Source: a virus
Taxonomy: Duplodnaviria > Caudoviricetes
Virus record (IMG/VR): IMGVR_UViG_3300035072_000033
Location: 1-55,837 of that record
Length of the DNA: 55,837 nt
Strand: one strand, 5' to 3'
Each line of letters starts with the position of its first letter. Position 1 is the stretch's first letter. Below, one piece after another: positions 2,840-46,165 of the stretch. A program made the position numbers and the translations under genes. The notes beneath the pieces are model-generated. The model ran no database searches. It was not told the origin of the DNA and worked only from the letters and a program-made list of their open reading frames with translations.

Positions 2840-3784
2840 TTAAAGCGCGTTCACGTCCTCGTTGCGCGAACGCAGATAGCGGTCGAACGCGCGCTCCAGA
2901 TCGGGCTTGGCGCCGGAGAATTCGAGCACGCCAAAAGTGTTGCGCTTCAAGTCCTCGATCGGGTCGAAGTCGTGCTGGACGAACGTCTCCCAGCGGCCGA
3001 CATAGGCGCGGTCCTGCTTGCGGCCGTGGAACAGATGCTCGATGCCGCCCGGCACGTAGCCGAGCTTGCCGTTGACATGCGCCTGTGCGCGGGCCTGCCA
3101 GCGCATCACCGCCGCGCGATAGGCACCGTTGACGTTGGCGGGAAGCGAGCGCTCCGCTTGGCCGGCGAGCGCCAGCGCCATGTGATGATCGCCCGAGCCC
3201 ATGCCGCCCTGCTCGAACAGGCCGCCGATGCGGTCGAGCGTCTCGCGCGTCCAGGCCCAGGCATAGCCGGAATGCGGATAGCAATAGGGGCCGCCGTCCG
3301 ACTGCCAGAAGGCCGCGCCCTTGCTCGTGACCGGGCCGCCCTCGTGGAACACCCGGCAGAAGCTGCGATGCGTCTGGATATGTTCGTCGTTGGGGCCGAG
3401 GTCATAGGCGGTCGACCACGGCTGCACGACCGGATAGAGCTGCAGCGCGTGCAGCGTCTCGGTGGCCCAGCCGGGCTTGCGAAAGGTGATGTCGGCGTCG
3501 AGCGTCGCGACATGGGCGGCGCCATCGGGGAGCCGCGCGATGCCGAGATTGAGCAGGCATTCCTTGTTCCACACCAGCGTGCGGGCGCGGACGGGAACAT
3601 GCGTGACGCGCGGGCCGGCGAGACCCGCCAGCTCGTGCGGCCGCGCGCCATAGGCGCATTCGACCAGCGTGACGTGAACATTGGGCTCGTCGAGCCAGGA
3701 CTCGATCGCCAGGCGCGCCAGATGAATGCGGCTCTCCCAGCGAATCGGATTGGCGATCGCCGCGACGATGTGAAGCAAATCCAT
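2840..3784 (-). CDS. GT-A-fold glycosyltransferase-like protein
   Basis: WNKECLLNLG, hydrophobic strand + DAD motif (VATLDADI), GGMGSGD, HLFHG. Confidence 0.6.
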   Translation of the reverse strand: MDLLHIVAAIANPIRWESRIHLARLAIESWLDEPNVHVTLVECAYGARPHELAGLAGPRVTHVPVRARTLVWNKECLLNLGIARLPDGAAHVATLDADITFRKPGWATETLHALQLYPVVQPWSTAYDLGPNDEHIQTHRSFCRVFHEGGPVTSKGAAFWQSDGGPYCYPHSGYAWAWTRETLDRIGGLFEQGGMGSGDHHMALALAGQAERSLPANVNGAYRAAVMRWQARAQAHVNGKLGYVPGGIEHLFHGRKQDRAYVGRWETFVQHDFDPIEDLKRNTFGVLEFSGAKPDLERAFDRYLRSRNEDVNAL

Positions 3785-5224: not shown

Positions 5225-5296
5225 AAGGAATCCTCGATTGACCGGGGAACCGCCCGGCGCGGACGCGTCGTCTTCGGCCGAAAACGACGAATTTCG

Positions 5297-5770
5297 TTAG
5301 CGCCCCTCGCGCCAAGCCTCGAATGTCTTTTCGCGGATTTGCGGCTCAAGCGTTTCGAGGTAGGCGTCGCGCGTCGCAGCATCCACGCGCTCGCACCAAA
5401 AGCGCGACGAATTATCCGTGTAGTCTTGCACGGTCCCCTCGCACACATCCTTGAGCATCAGCACGTGGATGTCGCAGTTCTTAGTCCAAGTGGAATCGCA
5501 AAAGGCATAGAGGTCGCCGTAGCTCCGCTCAGATGCATGCACGTTGTCGATCTTGAACATCACGACTTCGAGAACGATCAGCGCCGCGAGCGCCAGGCGC
5601 GATAGGATTCTGAAATCACCGCTCCACGCCAGCACCAGCAAGACGCCGACGAAAATATGAGCCAGCGTCTCATAGAGACCTGGCCATCCAGCGAGGCCAT
5701 GGCCGGGTATCGTGAAACGCCCAAGCCCGCACAATGCCGAAGCCACGATAATTAGTATTGTCTTGTGCAT
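5297..5770 (-). CDS. Membrane protein (3 TM + Cys-containing domain)
   Basis: Hydrophobic N-terminal half; directly downstream of the endolysin. Confidence 0.65.
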   Translation of the reverse strand: MHKTILIIVASALCGLGRFTIPGHGLAGWPGLYETLAHIFVGVLLVLAWSGDFRILSRLALAALIVLEVVMFKIDNVHASERSYGDLYAFCDSTWTKNCDIHVLMLKDVCEGTVQDYTDNSSRFWCERVDAATRDAYLETLEPQIREKTFEAWREGR

Positions 5771-5771
5771 G

Positions 5772-6302
5772 TCAGGCTCCCTTGATCGCCTGCTTGGCGC
5801 GGCGCAGATAGACCGCGCGATCGGCGAAGCCGTTGAGGCCGCCGTTGATGCGCAGGGTTATGGTCTTGATGTCGTCGCGATCGGCGAAGACGTTCAGTGA
5901 ATGCTCCTTCCAGAACACGCCGGCGACATTGGCTGCGTGCGGGAACGACGCGACGATCTCCGGCCGCGACAGGAAATCGACCGCGAGGGCCTTCGACAGC
6001 CGCGCGTAATTGGCGCGGCCGGTCAGCATGCACAGACCGCGCCCCTTGAAGCGCTCGCCGTCGCCGGCCTGCGTGTTGCCGAGGTCGCGGCGTCCTTCAT
6101 AGGCGCGCCCGCTCGCTTCCTCGGTCAGATGCGTGTAGCCGTCCGTCTCCTGCGCCCATTGCGCGAGGAAATGCGCTTGGCGCAGCGGCGTCGAAAGCTC
6201 GAACCGCGCGCATAGCGCCGGGAAGAGGTCGGCGAGCCCGTGCGCGATATCGAGATGCGCCTGCGGCGCGATGCGCTTGACGACGAAGAACCAATCGGTC
6301 AT
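5772..6302 (-). CDS. Endolysin, glycoside hydrolase family 19
   Basis: AHFLAQWAQET, YEGRRDLGN, FKGRGLCMLTGRANY, TLRINGGLNG motifs. Confidence 0.92.
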   Translation of the reverse strand: MTDWFFVVKRIAPQAHLDIAHGLADLFPALCARFELSTPLRQAHFLAQWAQETDGYTHLTEEASGRAYEGRRDLGNTQAGDGERFKGRGLCMLTGRANYARLSKALAVDFLSRPEIVASFPHAANVAGVFWKEHSLNVFADRDDIKTITLRINGGLNGFADRAVYLRRAKQAIKGA

Positions 6303-6351
6303 CGCGGCCGTTCCTTGTTTGGCGGGGAAAGTTGGGGGCTCGGAGCCGGCG

Positions 6352-6432
6352 CTAGCGAAACAGCGGCGCGGCGAGCGAGGCCGCGAAGGCGCACAGCCAC
6401 GCGATGACGACGAGCCAGAGAAAGCCGCGCAT
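6352..6432 (-). CDS. 26-aa hydrophobic peptide
   Basis: MRGFLWLVVIAWLCAFAASLAAPLFR; start overlaps the upstream stop (TGATG). Confidence 0.45.
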   Translation of the reverse strand: MRGFLWLVVIAWLCAFAASLAAPLFR

Positions 6433-6662
6433 CAAAACGCCTCGGCGAAGTGAAGCGCGGCGACGACCGCCGCGAGCGTGAAGGCGAGATAGAAGCATTG
6501 GATCGCGGCGCGCTCGATCAACGCGCGGCGCGGACGCCGCCAGGTCGCGCGGTCGGAGAGGACGACGGGGCGCGGCTTCGCGGAATCGCGCCGCGCCCAA
6601 TCGAACACCAGCGCGCCGACGATCACCGCGGCGGCGAGGAAACAAAAGCCGGCGAGCGTCAT
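6432..6662 (-). CDS. Small 2-TM membrane protein
   Basis: MTLAGFCFLAAAVIVGALVF...; ATGA overlap with the upstream ORF. Confidence 0.6.
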   Translation of the reverse strand: MTLAGFCFLAAAVIVGALVFDWARRDSAKPRPVVLSDRATWRRPRRALIERAAIQCFYLAFTLAAVVAALHFAEAF

Positions 6663-6790
6663 CGCGCCTTCCTCTTGTTCGAACGCCCGCACGCGGCGCG
6701 CAGGATGATCGCCGCCGCGGCGAGCGGCAGGCCGATCAACGTCGGCGCGGCGAGGAGGGTCTCGACGAAATCCGCGCCGCGTCGACGCAT
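6659..6790 (-). CDS. 43-aa single-TM peptide (not in ORF track)
   Basis: MRRRGADFVETLLAAPTLIGLPLAAAAIILRAACGRSNKRKAR; stop overlaps the next start. Confidence 0.45.
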   Translation of the reverse strand: MRRRGADFVETLLAAPTLIGLPLAAAAIILRAACGRSNKRKAR

Positions 6791-6823
6791 GGCTGCTTCC
6801 CGATGATCGGCGGCGGCGTGCTT

Positions 6824-8428
6824 TTAAGCCACGTTCTGCAACAGCAGCTTGTTGACTGGCACCGCAATCGTCGGCGCGAGATAATCGTAACCCAGCCCGC
6901 TCGAGTGCAGGCCGTCGGGATAAAGCGCGCTGTTCCCGATAGCCGCGTATGGCCCCATCGTCGGGTCCGAGCCTACGTCAGCCAGCGCATCCGCCACGCT
7001 CGCCCACCCGGCAGTTACCAGCGGATTGAATACCTGCCTATATGTATCTCCGCCGCCTATGTCGCGCGGTAGCATCGTGACCAGCACGATTTTGTAACCG
7101 GCGGCGCGAACAATGCCGCAAAGGGTTTGCAAATCCGCCCACACCTGCGCCTCTTGAGTTGGCGTGGCGGCGAGGGAGTTCGTGCCGAGCCAGACAACCG
7201 CGATGTTGGTCGCGCCCGCTCGATAGCTCTGGGCAAGCCACGCGGCGGTGTATGCCTGCGCGGAAACGCATGTCGCGCCAGGGACGCCCTGATTAATGAT
7301 GCGCATGGGGCGGGCGAGCAGCGGGGCCAGCTTTTGCGGCAAATTGTCGATCTGCGCCTTTTGGCCATACAAGATGCTGTCGCCTACGAGAACAAGATTC
7401 TCCCGGATTTGCGGCTTGATGTCGAAAGCACAGAACGTCGCGAGTTGAAGCGTGGTCAGTTGCGCCGTGGTCAGCGCGGAATTCCAGACGATGAAGCCCT
7501 GCCAAAGCGCCGCAGCCTGAAAAACCCCAATGCCGCCAAGATTGCTCTCGCCGATCAATCCGCCGGCGGATACGGCTGTCGTGGAGAACGCGGCCCCGGT
7601 TACTTGATCCGTATTCGTGAACGAAGTGTAGCCGGACGCGCCGCTAATCAATCCGGCGAGGCAAGTCCTGCCGCTGTATTGTGCTTGAGCGTTATAGACC
7701 GTGCCATCGGATTTCACGAAGGTGTAAGAGGGGATGGTCGGGACGCCAACGAATCTGATAGAGGTCAGCGTTCCATTGGACGAAAGGTCCCATTCCAATT
7801 GCCCGTCGCCACCTGGCATTCCGATACAGGCGACCGAGAAGTTTTCCCGTGTTACCGCGACCCCCGATGGCAGAACGAAGTATTGAACGGTGCCCGACGT
7901 TTGGTCCATGCTGATCGCGGGGCGACCGTCAAGGAAGTGCTTGCCGATGGTAGGCCGGTTCGCCGCCGTGGGCTGCGTGGCGTGGTTCGCAGTGCTGTAG
8001 TGGTCATACCAAGTCGCGGATACCAAAGACGTATTCGCCATGAACGCGGACGCGCTATCCCAGTCTATCCAACCGCTCGAAAGAAACCCCACGTCAAGGT
8101 TAGCGCCGTCCGAAGCGCGCACGATATTAACGCAAGGTCCGCTGTAAGAATTAACAAGCTTCTTTATGCCGTATGCGCAAAGAACGGCCACACCAACGGC
8201 GTCGACGACCGGAGCGGAATTATTATAGAGCGTTTGCCACGCGGCGGCGCCCGCCGTATTACGGACGCATTTCCAGACATTCCCGCCGAACTGCCAATAA
8301 TCGTTTACGAGATACCCGGCGTTCACGTCGTCGTTATTATCCGGGGCGCGTTGATCGACTGTCTTTTGAGCAAGACGCAGGGCGGCCGCTTGGCCAAGGC
8401 TAAATGGAGGAGCTATCGGGCTAAGCAT
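6824..8428 (-). CDS. SGNH/GDSL esterase with N-terminal lectin/arabinofuranosidase-B-like domain (probable tail-associated)
   Basis: GDS, NQGVPG, GTN, DGLH blocks; AYGIKKL..YSGP..VRASD..WYD N-terminal domain. Confidence 0.8.
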   Translation of the reverse strand: MLSPIAPPFSLGQAAALRLAQKTVDQRAPDNNDDVNAGYLVNDYWQFGGNVWKCVRNTAGAAAWQTLYNNSAPVVDAVGVAVLCAYGIKKLVNSYSGPCVNIVRASDGANLDVGFLSSGWIDWDSASAFMANTSLVSATWYDHYSTANHATQPTAANRPTIGKHFLDGRPAISMDQTSGTVQYFVLPSGVAVTRENFSVACIGMPGGDGQLEWDLSSNGTLTSIRFVGVPTIPSYTFVKSDGTVYNAQAQYSGRTCLAGLISGASGYTSFTNTDQVTGAAFSTTAVSAGGLIGESNLGGIGVFQAAALWQGFIVWNSALTTAQLTTLQLATFCAFDIKPQIRENLVLVGDSILYGQKAQIDNLPQKLAPLLARPMRIINQGVPGATCVSAQAYTAAWLAQSYRAGATNIAVVWLGTNSLAATPTQEAQVWADLQTLCGIVRAAGYKIVLVTMLPRDIGGGDTYRQVFNPLVTAGWASVADALADVGSDPTMGPYAAIGNSALYPDGLHSSGLGYDYLAPTIAVPVNKLLLQNVA

Positions 8429-21986: not shown

Positions 21987-23501
21987 TTAAAGGCCTTGCG
22001 GGTTGAGGAAGGTCGTGGCGTTGACCGCCATGACGCGCAGCTGATTGACCGGCTGGAACGGCAGATAGGCGTCGAGCCGGTTGGGATCGGCGTCCCAGTT
22101 GACGATGATGGCGCCGGCGAACTGCGTCGGGTTCTGCATGACGCCGGCCTGGCACAGCGACGTATACCAATGGATGAAGGACGCCTTGACGTCGGTCGGC
22201 GTCGCGACGCCCTGGTTGGCGGCGGGATTGTCGGCGGCCAGCGCGCTGCGCGGATAGGTCGCGGTGAATTGCTGCTTGATGTAGCGCAGCGCGTAGGCGA
22301 CCTGGTAGCGGGTGTCGATGTCGAGCCAGGTGGTGTCCGGGCTACCCCAGGCGTTGAGCTGATAGGTGGTGATCAGCCGGTCGATCGCGACGCCGCCGCC
22401 GGGCGCGACGGTGAAGGCCGATATGCCGTCGTAATAGAGCGTCTGCCGCTCCTGATCGGTCCAGTAATTGGCCTTCGACGCCGGCGGCAGCACGCCGAGC
22501 AGCTGCAAGGTCTGCATCGGGCGGGAGATTTCGACCGCGTTGGTCAGCGTCGCGCCGAGGTTCTTGTGCAGCTGCGCCTGCGCGCCGATCGCGCTGGCCC
22601 AGACCCAGGGCGGCGTCGGCGACGACAGCACGCCCATGATCGAGACATTATCGTCGTTGCGGGCGGTTCCGAGCGTGGTCAGCGCCGACTGAGTGCCGAA
22701 TTGCACGCAAAAGGCCGTGCCGTAAATATCGAACATCGGGTCCCAGCGACCGCCGGAATCGGCGAGGAAGGACTGCAAGGCGTTCAGCGTCGTCGTGTCG
22801 GCCCAGGGGCAGGCGATCATGTCGAACGGCGCCGCGCCGAGCGCCGCGAGACCGGAGGTCAGCGTGGGGATTCCCGTGCCGCTGGTCATCGGAGTGATCG
22901 CGATATTGGCCGCGTTTGGCCCCTCGTTGCCGATCAGGTTGTTGTCGAGCTCGATGTTGTTGCCGAGCACGCCGACGTGATTGGCGGTGATCGTAACGAC
23001 GCCGAGCGAGGAGGTCGCGACGACCGGGAATTTGAGCGAGGCGCCCTGCAGATTGACATAGCCGGCGTTGATCGCCGCCGCCAGCGCCGTGGCGATCGTC
23101 GTCGGCGTGTCGGTCGAGCCGACCGACACGGCGATCTGGATGCCGCAAATATAGACGATCGCCACGCCGGGCGTCAGCGTGCCGGAGACGGTGATCGCGC
23201 CGGCCGCCTTGGAGCCGGACGGATCGGCCAGCGGCAGCGCCCAGAATTCGCCCAGCGGATTGTTGAGCGCGGCGTTGAGGATCATGTCGACCAACATCGA
23301 GCCGGCGCCGAACAGCGTGGCGATGTTGTTCAGCTGGATCTGCGTCGGCACGTTGGCCGTCGCCGTGCCGCTGGAGAGCATTTGCCCGAGCAGCAGCAGC
23401 TTGCTGTTGCCGGCGAAATAGGAGACGCCGCTGTTGACCTCGGCGCGAAAGCCGGGGACGCGCAGATTGGTCGGCATGCGGTTGAAGCCAACGGAGGCCA
23501 T
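21987..23501 (-). CDS. Tail sheath protein (Mu gpL family)
   Basis: LRVPG, LLLGQ, FGAGSML, ITTYQ.N, DPNRLD. Confidence 0.95.
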   Translation of the reverse strand: MASVGFNRMPTNLRVPGFRAEVNSGVSYFAGNSKLLLLGQMLSSGTATANVPTQIQLNNIATLFGAGSMLVDMILNAALNNPLGEFWALPLADPSGSKAAGAITVSGTLTPGVAIVYICGIQIAVSVGSTDTPTTIATALAAAINAGYVNLQGASLKFPVVATSSLGVVTITANHVGVLGNNIELDNNLIGNEGPNAANIAITPMTSGTGIPTLTSGLAALGAAPFDMIACPWADTTTLNALQSFLADSGGRWDPMFDIYGTAFCVQFGTQSALTTLGTARNDDNVSIMGVLSSPTPPWVWASAIGAQAQLHKNLGATLTNAVEISRPMQTLQLLGVLPPASKANYWTDQERQTLYYDGISAFTVAPGGGVAIDRLITTYQLNAWGSPDTTWLDIDTRYQVAYALRYIKQQFTATYPRSALAADNPAANQGVATPTDVKASFIHWYTSLCQAGVMQNPTQFAGAIIVNWDADPNRLDAYLPFQPVNQLRVMAVNATTFLNPQGL

Positions 23502-23540: not shown

Positions 23541-23735
23541 TCAGGCGGCCGCTGGGGCCTCGGGTGCCGGCTCGGGCGGCGTGGCCTCGATCACGTCGCC
23601 GTGCAGAATGCGGCGCCGCCAATACATGTTGTCGGGCACAAAATCGCCACCCTGCGGCAGCGGCGTGAATTCGCGATGCGGGCGGCGCACGAGAGCGCCG
23701 TCGACGGCGGGCTTGACGAAGATTTGGCCGGTCAT
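23541..23735 (-). CDS. DUF2635 / Mu gp38-like protein
   Basis: FVKPA..G..VR.P...LP..G..V....YW.RR...GDV. Confidence 0.85.
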   Translation of the reverse strand: MTGQIFVKPAVDGALVRRPHREFTPLPQGGDFVPDNMYWRRRILHGDVIEATPPEPAPEAPAAA

Positions 23736-24841
23736 GATTGCGGTGACTCCCAGTCGTCGACGCGCGGGGCGTTGGCAGGCGTTCCGGGCGCGGAGCTGTT
23801 GGCGGGGGCGGGCAGGGTGACGTTCACGTCCTTGAACGGCGGCGGCGAGGTTCCGGCGAGGGCGGCGGCCATGGCGGTCGCCTTTTCCTTTTCGGGGCCG
23901 GGCGGCCATGCGGCGGCGATGGCGGCGAACGGTTGCGGCAAACGATTGAGCCCCGTCAGGCCGGAGGTCGTGATCGGGATTTCGTTGTCGTCGATCTCGA
24001 TCTTGTAGATCACGTAGCGCGTCGCCAGCTTGTCGCCGCCCTTGGGATCGGTGAAGCGGATCGACTGCTTGTGGCGCGAGAATTTCGCCGCCTTGCGGAA
24101 CAGCGCCGAATTTGGCGCGTTGGAGCGAAACAGCGCCAGCTCGGCCTGCGTCTCGATCAGATCGAGCGAGGCCTCGAGCTCGTCGTCGGTCTCCGGCGTG
24201 AACAGCTGAAACGAGCCGTTGCTCTGCACCGGGCCGATCACCTGCATCGAGATTTCGAGCACCAGCTCGACCTCGGCGACGAACGGCGGCCCGTCCATCT
24301 TGTCGAGCGCCTCGCCGGAATCCTGCTCGGTGTAGACGGCGATCGCGCCGGCGATATTGGGCTCGACGGTGATCGCGAAATTATCGCCGCCGATGAAAGC
24401 CGCGTCGCCGGCGGCGACGGTGAAGGAAATCTGCGTCACGAACGCCTCGCCGACCACGCCGGAACCGACCAGCGCGTTGTGTGGATCGGTGACGTTGAAT
24501 TGCGTCGGCGACGTGAAGGTGACGAGATAGCCGCCAAGCTGCGCGCCGGCCAGCATCGGCGCCGTGGGGTCCAGGATCAGCGAACCGTTGCCGATATTGG
24601 CCACCGCCGCCGCCGCCCAAAGGGCGACCCATGACGCGTTCCACGCCGAAAAACTCGGCGCCGCCCATGCGTCGCTAATCCGCCCCGCCGCCGCGACAAC
24701 CTGACCCGGACCAAGCGGCGAATTGGCCGCGAAATTCACCGCGTCGATGCGGCTGTCGAACACGTTCTGCCCGGCGATCGTCGTGCCGCGCAGCGCGGCG
24801 ACGGCGGAAAGGCGCAGACAGGCGCGCGAAAGGGCGCTCAT
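23732..24841 (-). CDS. Tail completion/terminator-like protein with internal inserted domain
   Basis: LR..AV.AL...T.AG..VFDSR..., AVYTE.D, ELEASLDL.E; just upstream of gp38 and sheath. Confidence 0.7.
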   Translation of the reverse strand: MSALSRACLRLSAVAALRGTTIAGQNVFDSRIDAVNFAANSPLGPGQVVAAAGRISDAWAAPSFSAWNASWVALWAAAAVANIGNGSLILDPTAPMLAGAQLGGYLVTFTSPTQFNVTDPHNALVGSGVVGEAFVTQISFTVAAGDAAFIGGDNFAITVEPNIAGAIAVYTEQDSGEALDKMDGPPFVAEVELVLEISMQVIGPVQSNGSFQLFTPETDDELEASLDLIETQAELALFRSNAPNSALFRKAAKFSRHKQSIRFTDPKGGDKLATRYVIYKIEIDDNEIPITTSGLTGLNRLPQPFAAIAAAWPPGPEKEKATAMAAALAGTSPPPFKDVNVTLPAPANSSAPGTPANAPRVDDWESPQS

Positions 24842-25248
24842 GTGGAGACGCCGAGCCGCACGACGCGAAAGGTCACATGATCGAACTCCGTCGCTTCAAC
24901 GGCGGAGATTTCGAAGATGACGCCATCGGCCACGCGCATCATGCGGTCCTTGTTACGCAGGGCGTAGGGCGTCGCGGCCTTGGCGATTTCGATGAGCGAG
25001 GCGGTCGTCGCATGTTCGGCGACCATATTCGTCACATTGGAGCCGCCGCGCCGCCCGCGGGGCTCATCAAGCGCGACATTTTGGGTCAGGATCGCCGTCA
25101 CGCCGAGAACCGCGGAACGCGATGAATCTGCGATCCATTTTCCGCCGATAAGCGCCATCGGCTGGACGTTGAAGCCGACGATGTCGCCGAACACGGCGTC
25201 GAGCGTCGTGGCCGCCACAGCGGCGTAATTGTAGAAATTCGTCGTCAT
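24838..25248 (-). CDS. Head-tail joining / head closure protein (gpFII-like)
   Basis: Position and size; beta-rich C-terminus. Confidence 0.6.
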   Translation of the reverse strand: MTTNFYNYAAVAATTLDAVFGDIVGFNVQPMALIGGKWIADSSRSAVLGVTAILTQNVALDEPRGRRGGSNVTNMVAEHATTASLIEIAKAATPYALRNKDRMMRVADGVIFEISAVEATEFDHVTFRVVRLGVST

Positions 25249-25574
25249 CTGATCAGCACACGAAAGCAGCGGGTGAGATTGGTCCCGTCGGCCAGCGCGA
25301 CCGTGGCGTAGACGGTCGAATAGCAATCCTGATTGCCGCCGGACAGCTGGATCGTCTGGACGAGCCCCGTCGCCCCCTTATCCGCCGCCGACACGCCGCC
25401 CAGGCTGAGCGGGATGTCGTCGCCGTAAAAGTAATCGGCGAGATTTTCGGTGTCGACGGCGACCGAATGCGCCGCTAAAGCGGTCGCGCCGCTCGGCAGC
25501 AGCGTCGTCCAGTCGATCGAGACGTTTTTGACGTCCGACGGGGCCTTCTGGACCGGCGGCCAAGCCTCGATCAC
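25245..25574 (-). CDS. Hypothetical virion protein
   Basis: K.P.D....SIDW...LSGG motif; coupled to neighbours. Confidence 0.65.
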   Translation of the reverse strand: MIEAWPPVQKAPSDVKNVSIDWTTLLPSGATALAAHSVAVDTENLADYFYGDDIPLSLGGVSAADKGATGLVQTIQLSGGNQDCYSTVYATVALADGTNLTRCFRVLIR

Positions 25575-25792
25575 GCGCTGGCGCCCGCGCCCTTGCCGGG
25601 TTCGCGCGCCGGCTTGGCGTAGCCAAACTCAAGCGGCTCCGGGATGCGCTCGCCGACGTTCTTGGGCTGTCCGCTCCCGTGCAACTTGACGAAGCCCTTG
25701 CCGATCAGTTTGTCCGCGATGTGGTCCTTGAATCCCGCGACGTCGCCCTGGCAATAAGGCAGGTCGTTCTTGATGAATTCCACGATTTTCAT
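25571..25792 (-). CDS. Small bL9-N-like protein, paralog of 26905-27135
   Basis: GAGGAG RBS; MKIVEFIKNDLPYCQGDVAGFKDHIADKLIGKG. Confidence 0.75.
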   Translation of the reverse strand: MKIVEFIKNDLPYCQGDVAGFKDHIADKLIGKGFVKLHGSGQPKNVGERIPEPLEFGYAKPAREPGKGAGASA

Positions 25793-26904
25793 GAGACATT
25801 CTCCTCGTTGGCGAGATTGTGGCGAGCGACGGGCTGAGCCCCTACGGTCTTGCCGTCCTCAATGAGTGCTGGCGGCCTCGCGAGCCGGACCAGATCGCCC
25901 TGGGTATTCGGAATGGGAGCGCCTAGCGCCTCTTTGGTGGTCGTCGCCAATGGACGCTAGGCATACCGGCGTCGTTTCCGGCTTTCCGGCCTTCGTTGTC
26001 ACTGGATTAACGCGCCGGCCCGGCGCATCGTCTGGTGAATAAACCCACGGCTGCATTTTCGGCTGCCCGCGACTGGACCCGTGACCACTGAGAATGCGTC
26101 GTCACCGACCATTGCTTCCGAGCGGGCCGGGCGCTAACCGGCTTTCCGCAATTCCCGGTGCTAGGCCTACGCACCGCAGCGCCTGGCGCGCTCCGGATTT
26201 TGCACAGCCGTTGATTTCAGCCGTTGAAGATACGGGGACCATGGCCGCGTGTCTGCTTTCCACGCCGCCGCTCGAAACTTCACTGCTCATCGAGCGAATT
26301 GTCGCGCTTTCGGCCTTCTGTTGAAGCGCCATGCGCGCCGGATTTCGCCTTTCGCCTCCCCCTCCCAAATCCGGGAAATCAAGGGGTGCTATCGCCGGTC
26401 ATTGCTCCCGGCATTTCCATTGCCCATTCGGGCGAATAAGTTGCCGTCTCTCCGGCTGTCACCGCGCTGCCGGGCCTGCAAGGCCTTGCGGTTCACCCAT
26501 CTACGACCCCCGGCTGGAGGAGACCCATAATTTCTCTAGTGGTCTCATTGTCGCTTTACCGCCGCCGATTTCCGCGAGAGCGGTCATCATTGAGCGTAGG
26601 GAGACAAAAGCTCTGTCGAAACTTCGCTCGCGGCCCATTCGCCGCGAGCAGGCGCCATTCCGCGTAGCGCGCGCCTACTCCGAACCCTTTCCGGCAGTCC
26701 CCTCGTGGTCGGGCCGGATTTGCCCCCGGTTCGTTTCGCCCTGGGATTCACAAAAAAGCGCCGGCTTGTCCGATTGCTTCCCTGTCGAAGGCGACCCGAA
26801 AGCGCCCGCTCCTCGTATCGATCGGACCGTGTTTGCGCTGCTGGCCGGCCAGATCAGCGGGAGGCCGAGGGGCTGGGAAAGCTGGGAATCCGTCGATGAG
26901 CGGT
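25793..26904 (-). ncRNA. Candidate large structured non-coding RNA or cluster of structured RNAs
   Basis: ~1.1 kb gap in a tightly packed operon, many hairpins, tRNA-shaped element at 26119-26274. Confidence 0.55.
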
Positions 26905-27135
26905 CTACGGCTGAATCGACGGCCATTGCAGTGAAGGCGGACGCGCCTTTTTCGGCGCGGCCTCCAAAGCCTTTGTGTCTTCGTCCGCCGGGTCGGGCTC
27001 CGCCGCGAGGCTTGGCTCCGCCAGCGGCGCGGCGAGGCCGGCGGCGATCATCCTGGCCGCATGGGCGTCGGAAAATCCGGCGACCTCGTTGATGGCGTAA
27101 GGCGGGTGATGCCTTACGAATTTAACCAGCATCAT
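26905..27135 (-). CDS. Small bL9-N-like protein, paralog of 25571-25792
   Basis: MMLVKFVRHHPPYAINEVAGFSDAHAARMIAAG; follows head genes. Confidence 0.75.
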   Translation of the reverse strand: MMLVKFVRHHPPYAINEVAGFSDAHAARMIAAGLAAPLAEPSLAAEPDPADEDTKALEAAPKKARPPSLQWPSIQP

Positions 27136-27161
27136 CGCCGCCCCTTCCACGCGCCAGCAGA

Positions 27162-27584
27162 TTAGATCGCCGGATGTTCGGTGGCTCCGCCGAGCACGAT
27201 CGTCGCGGTGAGCGGAATCGCCGGGCCGCTGCCGCCGACAAATGTCGGAGTGACCTGCGCGCGGATATAGCCGCGCGTTCCGCGAAGGTTGAACTTCACG
27301 CTGGCCTGTCCATTGTTCGCGGTGATCGGGGTGATCGACGTGCCGGAAACGGGAGCCCAGGAGGTCGTGCCGTCGGGACTGTCCTCGATGTCGGCGGCCA
27401 CCGAAAAGCTCGTCGGCGTGCCGGTCGCGGCGCCGACGCCAACGACGAGAACGCCGCTCTGGTAGTCATAGCCGGGGCCGACCAGCTGAATGGCGGCCCC
27501 GTCGACTTCGACCGCCGCGGCGGCGGCGAGGACATTCACCAGCGCTTTGATATAGCCGCCGATGTCGGTGATGGAGGGAAGCAT
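27162..27584 (-). CDS. Putative capsid decoration/cement protein
   Basis: Follows MCP; IEDSPDG..W..V...RGYIRA beta-sandwich pattern. Confidence 0.65.
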   Translation of the reverse strand: MLPSITDIGGYIKALVNVLAAAAAVEVDGAAIQLVGPGYDYQSGVLVVGVGAATGTPTSFSVAADIEDSPDGTTSWAPVSGTSITPITANNGQASVKFNLRGTRGYIRAQVTPTFVGGSGPAIPLTATIVLGGATEHPAI

Positions 27585-27644
27585 GGCAGGAGCTTTCGAA
27601 GGAGGAAGAATAACGCGCCGCGCGGCGCGTTGGCGGCTTGCCGA

Positions 27645-29123
27645 TTACTGCCAGACGACGCCGGTGAGCACGCCGATCGCCGAGGTGTGCTTGACGTTGC
27701 AGTCATGCTCGGCGATCACCCGGATCACCGTCTCGTCCTGGTCGAAGGCGCTGTGCAGATTGGTTCCGTCCGAATAGGTCGCCTCCTGCGAGGCGTCGAT
27801 CATCAGGCCGGGCACGTCGGCGATGATGAATTCGTCCATGTCGACGAGATAGACCTCCGACGCATTGGCGCCGCCGCCGAGATTTTGCGGGATGCTCTGC
27901 GTCCACGAATAGGGGATGCCGCGGAAGAAGCCGCGATCCATCTCCGCCCGGAACAGGAAGCCGCCGACGGCGTCGCGCGCGTCGTAAAAGAAGTTCTTGG
28001 TGCGCTGCGAGAAGAACCAATGCGGCGCGGTCATCGGCACGGCGGCCGATTCCAGCGCGTTGATCAGCGACGTCATGTCGGCGATCGCCGTGGCGACGTT
28101 GAAGGCCTGATTGGAGCCGATGATATTGGCCGCCGCCGCGAGATAGCGCATCCCCTTCGGCGTCCACACCGTGCCGGCGCCGCGCAGGAAAGACGCGTCC
28201 TCGAGCACCGCCAGCTGGCGAATGAGATCGTCGCGGACCATCGCGTCGGCCGAGCCTTGCGCGAAGCGGATCAGGTCGTTGGAGACCGGCACGATCGCCT
28301 TGGCCTTGCGCGCGGTGAAGTTGATGTCGCCGATCACTTCCTGCGTATAGGCCGACGACTGGCCCTCGCCGACGTAGCCGATCGTCGCGCCGGCGTTGAT
28401 GCGGCCCATCGTCAGATTGCCGCGCGGGATCGAAATCTGCCGCGAATTCGGGGTCGCCTTGCGCACCACGGTGCGCGGGCGCAGCAGGTCGATCAGCTCG
28501 GCGGAAAGCTCGATCGGAATCATGTAGCCGCCGGCGCTGCCAATGCTGGCCTGCAGCGCGCGCACGACGATGTCGCCCATGCTATGACGGGTGGCTGCCT
28601 CGATTGGCGACACGCCGAATTTCTTGCCGACCGCGACGGCGGCGATCATCCGCATCGCCAGTTCGCCCTGTTCAGGCTCCTTGCGCTTTAGGCCGGGGAG
28701 GTAGGTCGGGTTGTTGAGCCCGCGGTTGACGCCGTCGGTCGGGGCTGAACGGTCGATCTTGGCGGCCTCCTCGATCGCCGCGACGCGGAAGGCGTCGAGC
28801 GTCGTGTTGGCGCGAATATGCTGCGTCGCGAACTCCGCCGGCAGGCCGAGTTTGGCGGACGTGTCGGCTATGGCGTCGCGGCGCCCCTGCTCAGCGGCAA
28901 GCGACTGCGCAACGCGGCCTTCGATATCGACCCGCTCGGCCTCCTCGAGCGCGGAGCGAGCCTCGGCAATGTCGGCGACTAGCTCGTTATGCGCCCTTTC
29001 GATTCCACGAACATCGGCGTCCGACAAGCCGTCCTTCAGCTCAAGGAGCTTTGCAGCCGACCGCCCTTCCAATTCGGCGATGATGCTACGCAGCTCCGCC
29101 GCTTTCTTTCCCTTGAACTTCAT
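27645..29123 (-). CDS. Major capsid protein (HK97 fold) with N-terminal scaffold region
   Basis: AGGYMIP.E....LIDLLR, YVGEG, D..FL.G.G...P.G, AF.QD..IR...EHD; GGAG RBS before ATG 29123. Confidence 0.93.
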   Translation of the reverse strand: MKFKGKKAAELRSIIAELEGRSAAKLLELKDGLSDADVRGIERAHNELVADIAEARSALEEAERVDIEGRVAQSLAAEQGRRDAIADTSAKLGLPAEFATQHIRANTTLDAFRVAAIEEAAKIDRSAPTDGVNRGLNNPTYLPGLKRKEPEQGELAMRMIAAVAVGKKFGVSPIEAATRHSMGDIVVRALQASIGSAGGYMIPIELSAELIDLLRPRTVVRKATPNSRQISIPRGNLTMGRINAGATIGYVGEGQSSAYTQEVIGDINFTARKAKAIVPVSNDLIRFAQGSADAMVRDDLIRQLAVLEDASFLRGAGTVWTPKGMRYLAAAANIIGSNQAFNVATAIADMTSLINALESAAVPMTAPHWFFSQRTKNFFYDARDAVGGFLFRAEMDRGFFRGIPYSWTQSIPQNLGGGANASEVYLVDMDEFIIADVPGLMIDASQEATYSDGTNLHSAFDQDETVIRVIAEHDCNVKHTSAIGVLTGVVWQ

Positions 29124-29208
29124 AATGTGCTCCAAAGTGCCGGACAAGAATTTTCGCTTATCTGCGGCCGGCGACGCAGCGGCGGGGCATTTGGGTTGGC
29201 TTTACTCG

Positions 29209-30195
29209 TTACCCAGCGGCGCTACGACGCATCATGCGCATGCGCGTGCGGGCGACATCGACCTTCGAGGCGGTAGAGTTTTCGGACGGAGCGCCGGACA
29301 TGGCGCGGGCCGGCCGCAGGGCGCGGAAGCCGGCGCGCGGATCGGCTGGGATGGCGACGGCGCTAACTTCATGCGGCTCCCAGTCGGTCGCATTGCGCGT
29401 GGGCGGCGAGGTCGTGTCGTCGACCTCGAATTTGTGGGTCAAATAGCCGACGGAAACGTGCCGCAACACGCCGTCCTTCATGTCCTGGAAAGCGCGTTCG
29501 CCTTCGTCGGAGCGCGAGAATTTGATGCGCGCGCGCAACTCGCCCTTTTCGACCCGCGCCGAACCGGGAACCACAGCGCCAAGCATGGCGCCGGTGCCCC
29601 CCCAATAATTATGCGAGTCGATAAACGCCGCACCGCGATTGAGCCGCTCCAGCCGGATCGCCTTGGGGTCCATCGACAGTTTTTCGATATAGTCGCCGTC
29701 GCGCCAGTCGCTGCGCTTGACCGGCGCGCCGGTGGAGATTGCCGCGTCGACCGTGCGCTCATCTTCATCGACCGTGCTGGGCACCATGTCGGTAGCGCGC
29801 GTCAGAATGCCGATGTTTGACGCGCCGCGCCCCTCGTCTTCCTCTTCCCCGTCGCCGGCCTTTTTATTCAGCGCGTCGATCAGCTTGCCGGCGGCTTTGA
29901 AGATCGCGTCAGATCCCTGCTGGCTGGCGCGCGAGCGGCTGGCGCGCAAGGCGGAGGCATAAACCTTGCCGTCCTTGATGAGCGGATATTTCCAGCGCGC
30001 CTTGGTGGCCTCGTCGGCCTCGTCGTCCTCGCCGAGATGGACGGCGGCATAAGCCTTCCAATCGTCGCCGTTTTCTCCGAGCAGCGCGTCGCCGTCCTCG
30101 GCCGAGAATGACCAGGCGGCGTCCTTATCGTATTTTCCGGCGGCGATCAGCGCGGCGGCGTGACGCTCGCCCGCTTTGTTGAGCTTGACTGTCAT
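29209..30195 (-). CDS. Prohead maturation protease with extra N-terminal domain
   Basis: DSH, VSVGY, WEP.EVS.V.IPAD motifs of HK97-type protease. Confidence 0.88.
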   Translation of the reverse strand: MTVKLNKAGERHAAALIAAGKYDKDAAWSFSAEDGDALLGENGDDWKAYAAVHLGEDDEADEATKARWKYPLIKDGKVYASALRASRSRASQQGSDAIFKAAGKLIDALNKKAGDGEEEDEGRGASNIGILTRATDMVPSTVDEDERTVDAAISTGAPVKRSDWRDGDYIEKLSMDPKAIRLERLNRGAAFIDSHNYWGGTGAMLGAVVPGSARVEKGELRARIKFSRSDEGERAFQDMKDGVLRHVSVGYLTHKFEVDDTTSPPTRNATDWEPHEVSAVAIPADPRAGFRALRPARAMSGAPSENSTASKVDVARTRMRMMRRSAAG

Positions 30196-45756: not shown

Positions 45757-46000
45757 TTACGGGGACTCCCGTGCTGTCCTGCTCAAGACAGGAGGACGCA
45801 CGTCACGCTTCGAAATGACCCGTGGGACGGGCCCGAACCAACCGACGCGGCGAACGGGGGGCGATCGCCGCGCCGGCCAACCGACGCATCAAGCAACGCT
45901 ACGAAAACACGCCGGGCTTTTATCCACGCGATGCCCGGCCCCGCGCTTGCGGTCGACGCGAAGAACAACCCCCGCGCGCCGACGGAACTCTCACCCTCCC

Positions 46001-46065
46001 AAAAGCCCCGCGCGACGGGCGCCGCGCGGGGAAGTCAAGGGAGGAAACGCCCAAGGAGGGCTACG
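46001..46065 (-). ncRNA. MmgR/suhB (alpha-r8)-like small RNA
   Basis: GCCCTCCTTGGGCG-TTTCCTCCCT-TGACTT followed by a terminator hairpin + TTTT; 5' end uncertain. Confidence 0.7.
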
Positions 46066-46165
46066 AAGCATCGGACACCCGAGGCTGCGAACCTCGCGCG
46101 GCCATCGAGCCCGCGCGAAGAGGGGAAGCGCCGGAGAGCCGGCGCGAAAGGGGAGGGGGCGGCGC

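Follow-up and report, generated by a model that had tools for sequence, protein, structure and literature searches.

A portable non-coding cassette in a phage head-gene operon carries two widespread structured RNA families

The Mu-gpT-DE motif is an RNA element that follows the Mu-type major head gene, the T4 stable RNAs C and D (of the tRNA cluster) and the YrlA-type Y RNAs are tRNA-shaped RNAs that do not decode, and phage 'morons' and tRNA gene arrays are familiar as general concepts. GOLLD and ROOL have been described as large ornate RNAs of bacteria and phages (PMC5737381; preprint 10.1101/2024.12.08.627333), often found near tRNAs and in prophages (PMC5737381). Here we analyse a 1.1-kb gap, the island (25793-26904), between the small head genes p81 and p73 of the IMG/VR virus record IMGVR_UViG_3300035072_000033 (55.8 kb, estimated 81% complete; its 55,837 nt are referred to as the window). 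The island holds a non-coding cassette of 1063 nt (25819-26881, minus strand), a unit common to other phages, which we divide from its 5′ to its 3′ end into modules M1, M2, M3 (M3a plus M3b), M4 and M5. Two of these, the tRNA-shaped RNA M3b and the 3′ junction motif M5, are widespread phage RNA families with strong covariation that lie outside Rfam 15.

The cassette resembles GOLLD and ROOL as these are summarized in the cited accounts: 0.6-1 kb of multi-junction non-coding phage or prophage RNA, tied to tRNA or tRNA-like genes. It differs from them in lying inside a head-gene operon of high-G+C (guanine plus cytosine) soil phages, in matching neither in sequence or structure, and in having optional domains as well as two domains that live alone elsewhere. 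M5 resembles Mu-gpT-DE as a conserved structured element just after genes of the major-head region in a late operon, but it matches no Rfam family and also follows terL and sheath genes. M3b has the tRNA-like outline of the T4 RNAs C and D and YrlA, and four of 105 copies among the matches listed adjoin tRNA genes on the same strand; unlike those RNAs, it has no T- or D-loop consensus, anticodon arm, encoded CCA, or Rfam or ARAGORN match. The Proteo-phage-1 RNA (RF03044) is likewise a small phage-associated RNA, but the fold and sequence of M3b differ from it and RF03044 is absent from the window. Finally, the cassette is moron-like in being a self-contained insert between late genes, absent from close relatives and common to unrelated phages, yet it encodes neither a protein nor a decoding tRNA.

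The island is non-coding. The initial annotation had found no credible open reading frame (ORF) here, and this is borne out by codon-position G+C, stop codons, ORF quality and mismatch phase. The periodicity of codon-position G+C is gone from ~25790 to 26910 and is back in the flanking genes, the difference between the highest and lowest position being 0.03-0.25 in the island (mostly 0.15 or less) against 0.2-0.55 in the flanks. Stops of mixed kinds occur 4-12 times in each of the six frames across the island, and no single stop reassignment, as in stop-codon recoding, opens a minus-strand frame in it. There is just one long ORF (26331-27092, plus strand, 253 aa), which was rejected as a gene: it is rich in Arg, Pro and Ser, runs antisense to p81, has no Pfam or PHROG match and looks like out-of-frame high-G+C sequence. 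Aligned with an 87% homologue from another phage (L025, below), the island has 121 mismatches, divided 42/38/41 by codon phase, with six indels of 1 nt and one of 18 nt. A tblastx search of the island returned compositional noise and no residual protein similarity. With no periodicity, no open frame and no third-position bias, both a protein-coding gene and a recent pseudogene were rejected.

Comparison with other phages reveals that the cassette is a discrete unit with fixed ends, moving among unrelated head operons. In the window, 24 nt separate its 5′ end from the stop of p81 and 27 nt its 3′ end from the start of p73. An exact island 30-mer located a second copy in IMG/VR (L025:3854-4898), which aligns at 87.5% identity over 1068 columns with the same two ends and unrelated flanks (BLASTN). 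This copy has terL on one side and a gpW-like head-tail adaptor gene on the other, in a phage whose early region is 83-87% identical to that of the window and whose head module is different. A third copy, found by translating two stop-free island frames as a search device, is a 680-nt version that matches the cassette in three pieces (L028:3972-4652) and sits between the genes for the prohead protease and the major capsid protein (MCP). The cassette is co-oriented with the late genes in all three phages, and occupies three different intergenic places in three unrelated head modules.

Metagenome data extend this picture. Two soil runs, which may be the source of the window, contain the whole stretch unchanged in a 15.5-kb contig; no RNA run is listed among those that contain it. 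Contigs from a soil run of another study (X3) match only 25819-25904, 25875-26280 and 26469-26881, at ~92-95% identity, and continue into unlike sequence past the cassette; the ends are again 25819 and 26881, giving a fourth context. The X3 variant skips 26281-26446, and a variant in run X4 skips 26272-26615, joining 26271 to 26616 at the 10-nt direct repeat TCGAAACTTC. The closest relatives of the window by MCP (L002 and L010, 72% identity) have the p73 orthologue 15 nt after the p140 homologue and no island, which is absent from all 22 related loci that MCP queries brought up in IMG/VR, GTDB genomes and JGI metagenomes. There is no blastn match to the island in GenBank phages or PLSDB plasmids, and the cassette is single-copy in the window record. 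The initial annotation had pointed to a ProQ/FinO protein encoded by the same phage. We confirm this domain (PF04352, 54093-54386, plus strand, 78.8 bits), but ProQ is found in neither of the other two cassette carriers (0/2, both at least 97% complete), so the link is weak.

In M5 (25822-25909, minus strand), a conserved AAUACCC leader precedes a 7-bp closing stem that surrounds four hairpins, one with a GCRA tetraloop; the covariance model R1 scores 102.8 bits in the window. When the cassette was compared by BLAST with 401 genomes from the order to which a related metagenome-assembled genome belongs, 13 genomes gave some match, seven of them to the last ~85 nt, and six were confirmed as M5 by the covariance model. 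The match in G222 was dropped as a copy: it falls within an ORF, and R1 does not match there. The bacterial copies are in prophage late operons, after the tail sheath gene, after the MCP gene plus one small gene, or after terL, and a weaker copy directly follows the MCP gene of the related locus L003. Among 151 genomes sampled from one alphaproteobacterial-type order, the covariance model detects M5 in seven, and a strict IUPAC pattern finds it in 47 IMG/VR contigs; a 93-nt query of GenBank phages found none at E 0.01.

The M5 fold is strongly supported by covariation. Across 58 matches (52 distinct), 98.4% of cells are paired, and in 19 of the 26 pairs both partners have changed. Cells with a double change total 164; shuffles give 35.7 (164 is reached in 0 of 500), and sliding the partners gives 8-20. 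RNAalifold with column-shuffled controls, our structure test for all modules, gives z -2.0 on the forward strand versus +0.2 on the reverse. In 43 instances of M5, the gene before it shares its strand in 35/41 cases and the gene after it in 28/34, with median gaps of ~100 nt. Upstream genes include those for the major head protein (6/35), small post-MCP proteins, terL (2) and sheath (1), and the head-tail adaptor phrog_195 accounts for 8/28 of those downstream. Two further arrangements were seen: in the prophage of G023 a tRNA-Met (CAU) follows the post-MCP gene directly upstream of M5 (L048:6088-6162), and L211 has two M5 copies ~390 nt apart (2700-2790 and 3093-3184).

M3b (26119-26274, minus strand) is 156 nt long. 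A 7-bp closing stem (CGAGCGG/CCGCUCG) is followed by a CG linker, the hairpin GCGUG[GAAAGCAGA]CACGC, a variable core and a second hairpin, GCCGG[UUAGCGC]CCGGC, which adjoins the closing stem. The first leads were two bacterial BLAST matches of 25-29 nt. A 20-nt core of M3b is present in at least 120 IMG/VR contigs of 35-66% G+C, and the counts of instances and copies given below are among the matches listed there. The second hairpin with its loop NNUAGCGN, then a closing stem of at least 5 bp, is found in 110 of 126 instances, whose length ranges from 99 to 333 nt (median 154). In 93 distinct instances the closing stem is 97.5% paired, versus 54% with partners permuted (at most 59% in 500 permutations), and all four Watson-Crick types occur at six of its positions. 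The second hairpin covaries as well (GCCGG/CCGGC in 68, GCAGG/CCUGC in 10, and others). The elements of a tRNA shape, namely a terminal helix, a 5-bp hairpin stacked on the 3′ strand of that helix and a second hairpin after a 2-nt linker, are present in these 110 instances, the M3b of the window included.

Copies of M3b lie within 500 nt of a tRNA gene in 9/105 cases, all nine on the same strand, and the four that adjoin one do so at 2-9 nt. Other neighbouring genes are of many kinds (integrase, HNH, endolysin, helicase, and RtcB twice), and the intergenic regions that hold M3b have a median length of ~580 nt. In GenBank phages a 241-nt query had no match. A 33-nt query at E up to 10 returned 12 records, ~9 of them with exact or near-exact core matches. 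Cultured phages carrying M3b include the Pseudomonas phages Persinger, PotUPM1 and Orimi01 and the Ochrobactrum phage POI1126. M3b comes after the integrase gene in Persinger and sits in a 590-nt gap near the MCP gene in POI1126, unannotated in both. M3b was rejected as an actual tRNA, with no ARAGORN match at M3b in the window, L025, L028, L039 or L042 and no Rfam match. One contig has two M3b copies 3.7 kb apart (L101:2828-2847 and 6570-6589). Elsewhere the Proteo-phage-1 RNA (RF03044, 61-72 bits) lies ~220 nt upstream of M3b in two loci (L042:1202-1280 and L080:7056-7136), suggesting that such RNAs can form small arrays.

The five modules were defined from a three-way alignment of the window, L025 and L028. 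M1 (26618-26881, minus strand) is the 5′ domain, present in all three copies. It holds the hairpin CGCUG-AU-CUGG[CCGG]CCAG-CAGCG and a helix GUCCGAU/AUCGGAC (26821-27/26768-74), with two hairpins (26646-26680 and 26626-26649) in its 3′ part. Identity is 91% between the window and L025 and 82% between the window and L028, with a 36-nt block invariant in the three copies; within IMG/VR, a 22-nt core is confined to the two contigs already known. Its alifold z, from three sequences only, is -0.4 forward and -1.9 reverse. M2 (26437-26617, minus strand) is optional, being absent from L028 (deletion 26437-26616) and from the X4 variant, and is 89.7% identical between the window and L025 (two sequences only). 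M4 (25922-26118, minus strand), likewise optional and absent from L028 (deletion 25922-26118), contains the region of the long hairpin 25921-25962 and has the highest window-L025 identity of any module (95.1%, again two sequences only). Within M3 (26119-26436, minus strand), 15 of 84 pairs are compensatory and the column-shuffle z is -6.4 forward versus -4.2 reverse. Its M3a part (26275-26436, minus strand) is a variable hairpin region that includes the helix 26338-45/26367-74; window-L025 identity is only 62%, and the hairpins are kept with different sequences. A pseudoknot in M3a can be drawn with two stems in the three sequences, but an automatic helix search gave competing helices and we do not claim it.

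We searched 1.66 Mb of retrieved phage and prophage DNA with an nhmmer profile built on the whole unit; the only matches were 52 M3b-like and 29 M5-like ones, together with one M1-like stretch immediately after M5 (L227:6101-6190, E 6e-4). A similarly weak M1-like repeat lies directly downstream of M5 in L028 (4666-4763, E 1e-4). This may reflect a functional link between M1 and M5 or a permuted module order.

None of these modules corresponds to a family in Rfam 15. Scanned with its 4227 models at the gathering score, the window yields only a tRNA (38-124) and suhB/mmgR (45993-46068), neither in the island. Relaxing the threshold to E 10 over 25500-27300 gave five matches, all far below their cut-offs; the best of them, skipping-rope (26386-26462, E 0.45, 18.5 bits versus 36.7), was set aside as chance, as were the intron models. 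Neither the M5 of the window nor four copies from bacterial prophages match any Rfam family at E up to 5-10, and scans of M3b loci gave no match to M3b. In the papers searched, core sequence strings turned up only in an unrelated potato primer, and word searches found no description of the M3b or M5 motifs. A 2023 catalogue is described as comprising 10,006 candidate viral RNAs built from IMG/VR (PMC10690425), and its entries may already include M3b and/or M5.

The initial annotation had drawn attention to this region as one packed with helices. All of the helices that it named are present in the sequence: 26338-45/26367-74 forms 8/8 pairs, GUCCGAU/AUCGGAC can be read directly, and 26626-26649, 26520-25/26541-46 and 25921-25962 show up in consensus folds. 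The folding energy of the island, though, exceeds neither chance nor the flanks. Each 150-nt sliding window was compared with 40 dinucleotide shuffles on either strand. The island (n=13) has a mean z of -0.87 on the plus and -0.47 on the minus strand, and the coding flanks (n=50) have -0.66 and -0.76. The initial annotation had listed just such an outcome as one that would refute its reading. Folding energy was set aside as evidence in either direction, and the case rests on comparative and covariation evidence, strong in M3 and M5, rather than on helix packing. We found nothing in support of the proposed switch between the hairpins 26626-26649 and 26646-26680, which overlap by 4 nt only and look like neighbours.

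The suggestion that G-U pairs place the RNA on the minus (late) strand fits our data. One U-G pair of M5 is present in 49 of 51 distinct sequences having letters there, alongside other G-U cells, and the 26626-49 hairpin shows a G-C to G-U change in L025. The RNA strand is also G-rich, with a plus-strand GC skew of -0.09 to -0.13 over 26050-26799, opposite to the flanks. Together with the better forward alifold z of M3 and M5, these features place the structured RNA on the minus strand. Structures under selection cover at least ~410 of the 1063 nt (M3 plus M5).

How these pieces act together is a matter of weighing. Our tentative preference, at a probability of roughly 0.45, is for a portable late-operon cassette made of an array of separately folding domains, M1 to M5, and processed to RNAs. 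The modules behave independently: L028 does without M2 and M4, X3 and X4 without other blocks, and M3b and M5 close on their own terminal helices. The initial annotation had left the choice between one large non-coding RNA and a processed array made abundantly late. Conserved late-strand RNA structure is supported, and because M3b and M5 stand alone in many other phages and variants lack whole modules, the processed array fits better than a single large RNA. We infer co-transcription, processing and all functional roles; abundant late expression is suggested by position and orientation only. A signal scan found neither a sigma-70-like promoter nor a terminator in the island interior, which fits read-through from the late operon.

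Several points weigh against the processed array. Single-sequence folding energies are unremarkable. The alignment behind the M5 covariation was fitted to the model, the invariance of M5 helices 2 and 3 reflects ascertainment because the pattern search fixed them, and the ORFs used for genomic context were called with a crude filter on third-position G+C. M3b, among the matches listed, has no consistent neighbouring gene family, mixed orientation and no conserved encoded CCA (NCCA in 7/104), and it is without a tRNA-type T-loop, so the term 'tRNA mimic' draws on its shape and on a minority of tRNA-array cases. M1, M2 and M4 have been seen only in the trio of window, L025 and L028, always together with M3 and M5, and the 90-95% conservation of M2 and M4 would also fit one larger co-folding RNA.

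Such an RNA would fold over ~1.06 kb as a single GOLLD/ROOL-like molecule, perhaps multimeric, with a late role of its own and with the M3b- and M5-like folds as reused blocks. A size of ~1 kb, several multi-stem junctions, GNRA-type loops, and the phage context with tRNA-like parts, as with GOLLD and ROOL, all speak for it. So do M1, M2 and M4, which never occur apart from the rest; conservation from the window to L025 is highest in M2 and M4, and the M1-like fragments right after M5 in L028 and L227 hint at contacts or a permuted order. We nevertheless consider it unlikely. The 680 nt of L028 lack M2 and M4, the X3 and X4 variants lack other blocks, and elsewhere M3b and M5 stand as whole units that close on themselves. 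We found no long-range helix with covariation that links one module to another, M1 has a z of only -0.4, and the GOLLD, ROOL and other Rfam models are unmatched. A large ornate RNA of this kind would have more than 500 nt and several multi-stem junctions with covariation all along; the ~410 nt of M3 and M5 have such support, and the two or three sequences for the ~640 nt of M1, M2 and M4 decide neither way.

A second alternative is that the region acts purely in cis as an mRNA spacer, offering processing sites, 3′-end protection for the head mRNAs upstream, insulation from Rho or a standby site for translating the next gene, with no product acting in trans. M5 is intra-operonic, ~100 nt from both neighbours and mostly co-oriented with them, and is enriched at the junction of major-head and adaptor genes. 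The island RNA is moreover G-rich and C-poor, which, as rut sites go, would make Rho loading on an untranslated kilobase less likely. Other features make this reading unlikely: M3b elsewhere behaves like a free-standing gene of mixed orientation near integrase, lysis, replication and tRNA genes, the closest relatives have no spacer at the p140/p73 junction, and 1 kb far exceeds the needs of a processing site.

That the cassette is selfish or decaying DNA (a non-autonomous mobile element, an ORF-less intron remnant or gene remains brought in with p81) is very improbable: its presence at three unrelated intergenic sites with identity above that of the flanks, the duplicated small genes p81 and p73 that bracket it and the variability of the p140-p73 slot in relatives, where L003 has extra small ORFs, would suit such an origin, but the strong compensatory change in M3 and M5 implies selection on RNA structure, no protein similarity remains and the mismatches have no three-base periodicity. 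Specific candidates of this kind were rejected. For a transposable element (an insertion sequence or a miniature inverted-repeat element) the ends carry neither inverted repeats nor a target duplication, the junction sequences differ and only one copy exists; the best inverted-repeat candidate (I1) reaches 80% over 20 nt and lies partly inside p81, and scans for repeats, tandem repeats, promoters and terminators found nothing that delimits the cassette. A group I or II intron in place would interrupt a gene, whereas the flanking genes are whole and the cassette is intergenic in 3/3 phages; the intron models score far below threshold (13.8 versus a cut-off of 49 bits, and 15.2 versus 65.5).

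The late genes of the window are on the minus strand. Upstream of the cassette they comprise the prohead protease (29209-30195), MCP (27645-29147), p140 (phrog_5707; 27162-27584) and p81 (26905-27150); downstream follow p73 (25571-25792), the Gp77-like adaptor p109 (25245-25574), p162 (24838-25326), p369 (23732-24841) and the tail sheath (21987-23501). The small gene p73 is the orthologue of a single small gene at the same place in relatives. In L002 (7864-8049; 55% identity by tblastn) this gene has the p140 and p109 homologues as its immediate neighbours. Over its first ~35 residues p81 is paralogous to p73, though divergent (BLASTP 13/35 identical, E 8e-9), and it matches PHROG 38773 and 2616; no p81 homologue was found in IMG/VR, and a search of 5.8 billion proteins returned p81 alone. 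The N-terminal domain of ~35 residues common to p73 and p81 has the consensus V.F......Y...E.AGF....A..LI..G.A. Two tandem copies occur in one small protein of L003 (3179-3483), whose slot between p140 and p73 is filled by this two-domain version and a 68-aa ORF, and the copy number of the domain at this slot differs among related phages.

Some further features of the region and its relatives were recorded. Directly after MCP, an 8-bp G+C-rich hairpin with a T-rich tail (27612-27631, minus strand) is the only terminator-like site in 25000-27700. The suhB/mmgR match (RF00519, minus strand) scores 44.4 bits against a gathering score of 41 and, in a phage record, points to an alphaproteobacterial host; the tRNA at the start of the window is called by ARAGORN as tRNA-Ser (38-127), its only call in the window. 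In L013 (1023-1739) the p140 homologue has 238 aa, with an in-frame insertion of ~100 residues mid-protein. L002 has its protease and MCP regions in one 701-aa frame (5245-7350), and in the window these are two ORFs ~60 nt apart.

Returning to the processed array, we propose the following course of events. The cassette would be transcribed as part of the operon of late head genes. The transcript could then be cut by RNases of the host, for instance RNase P, E or Z, with stable small RNAs as products. M3b at least would be released and may act in trans: looking like a tRNA, it would engage a tRNA-binding factor of host or phage. M5 would act in cis at the gene junction, as a specifically recognized fold that marks or protects the mRNA end, and could thereby uncouple what happens to the abundant head-gene message from what happens to the connector genes that follow. 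The cassette itself would spread by recombination as a gene-like, moron-like module, with domains gained or lost at short repeats.

Phage genomes are tightly packed, which makes a conserved non-coding kilobase inside a head operon unusual. A bolder reading, which we hold to be unlikely, is that the cassette is the first of a new composite class of phage RNA: a late transcript of ~1 kb in which the M3b mimic, the M5 fold (each also used by itself in phages of many hosts) and the other domains act as one particle, either as a decoy or sponge that disarms tRNA-directed or RNA-sensing host defences during head assembly, or in capsid morphogenesis. If that were true, M3b and M5 would be two new, widespread functional RNA classes of phages. 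On any reading, M5 is a recurrent mark of the junction between major-head and adaptor genes. It becomes testable how phages dose head versus connector proteins so differently from one transcript, and what role non-decoding, tRNA-shaped RNAs have for phages.

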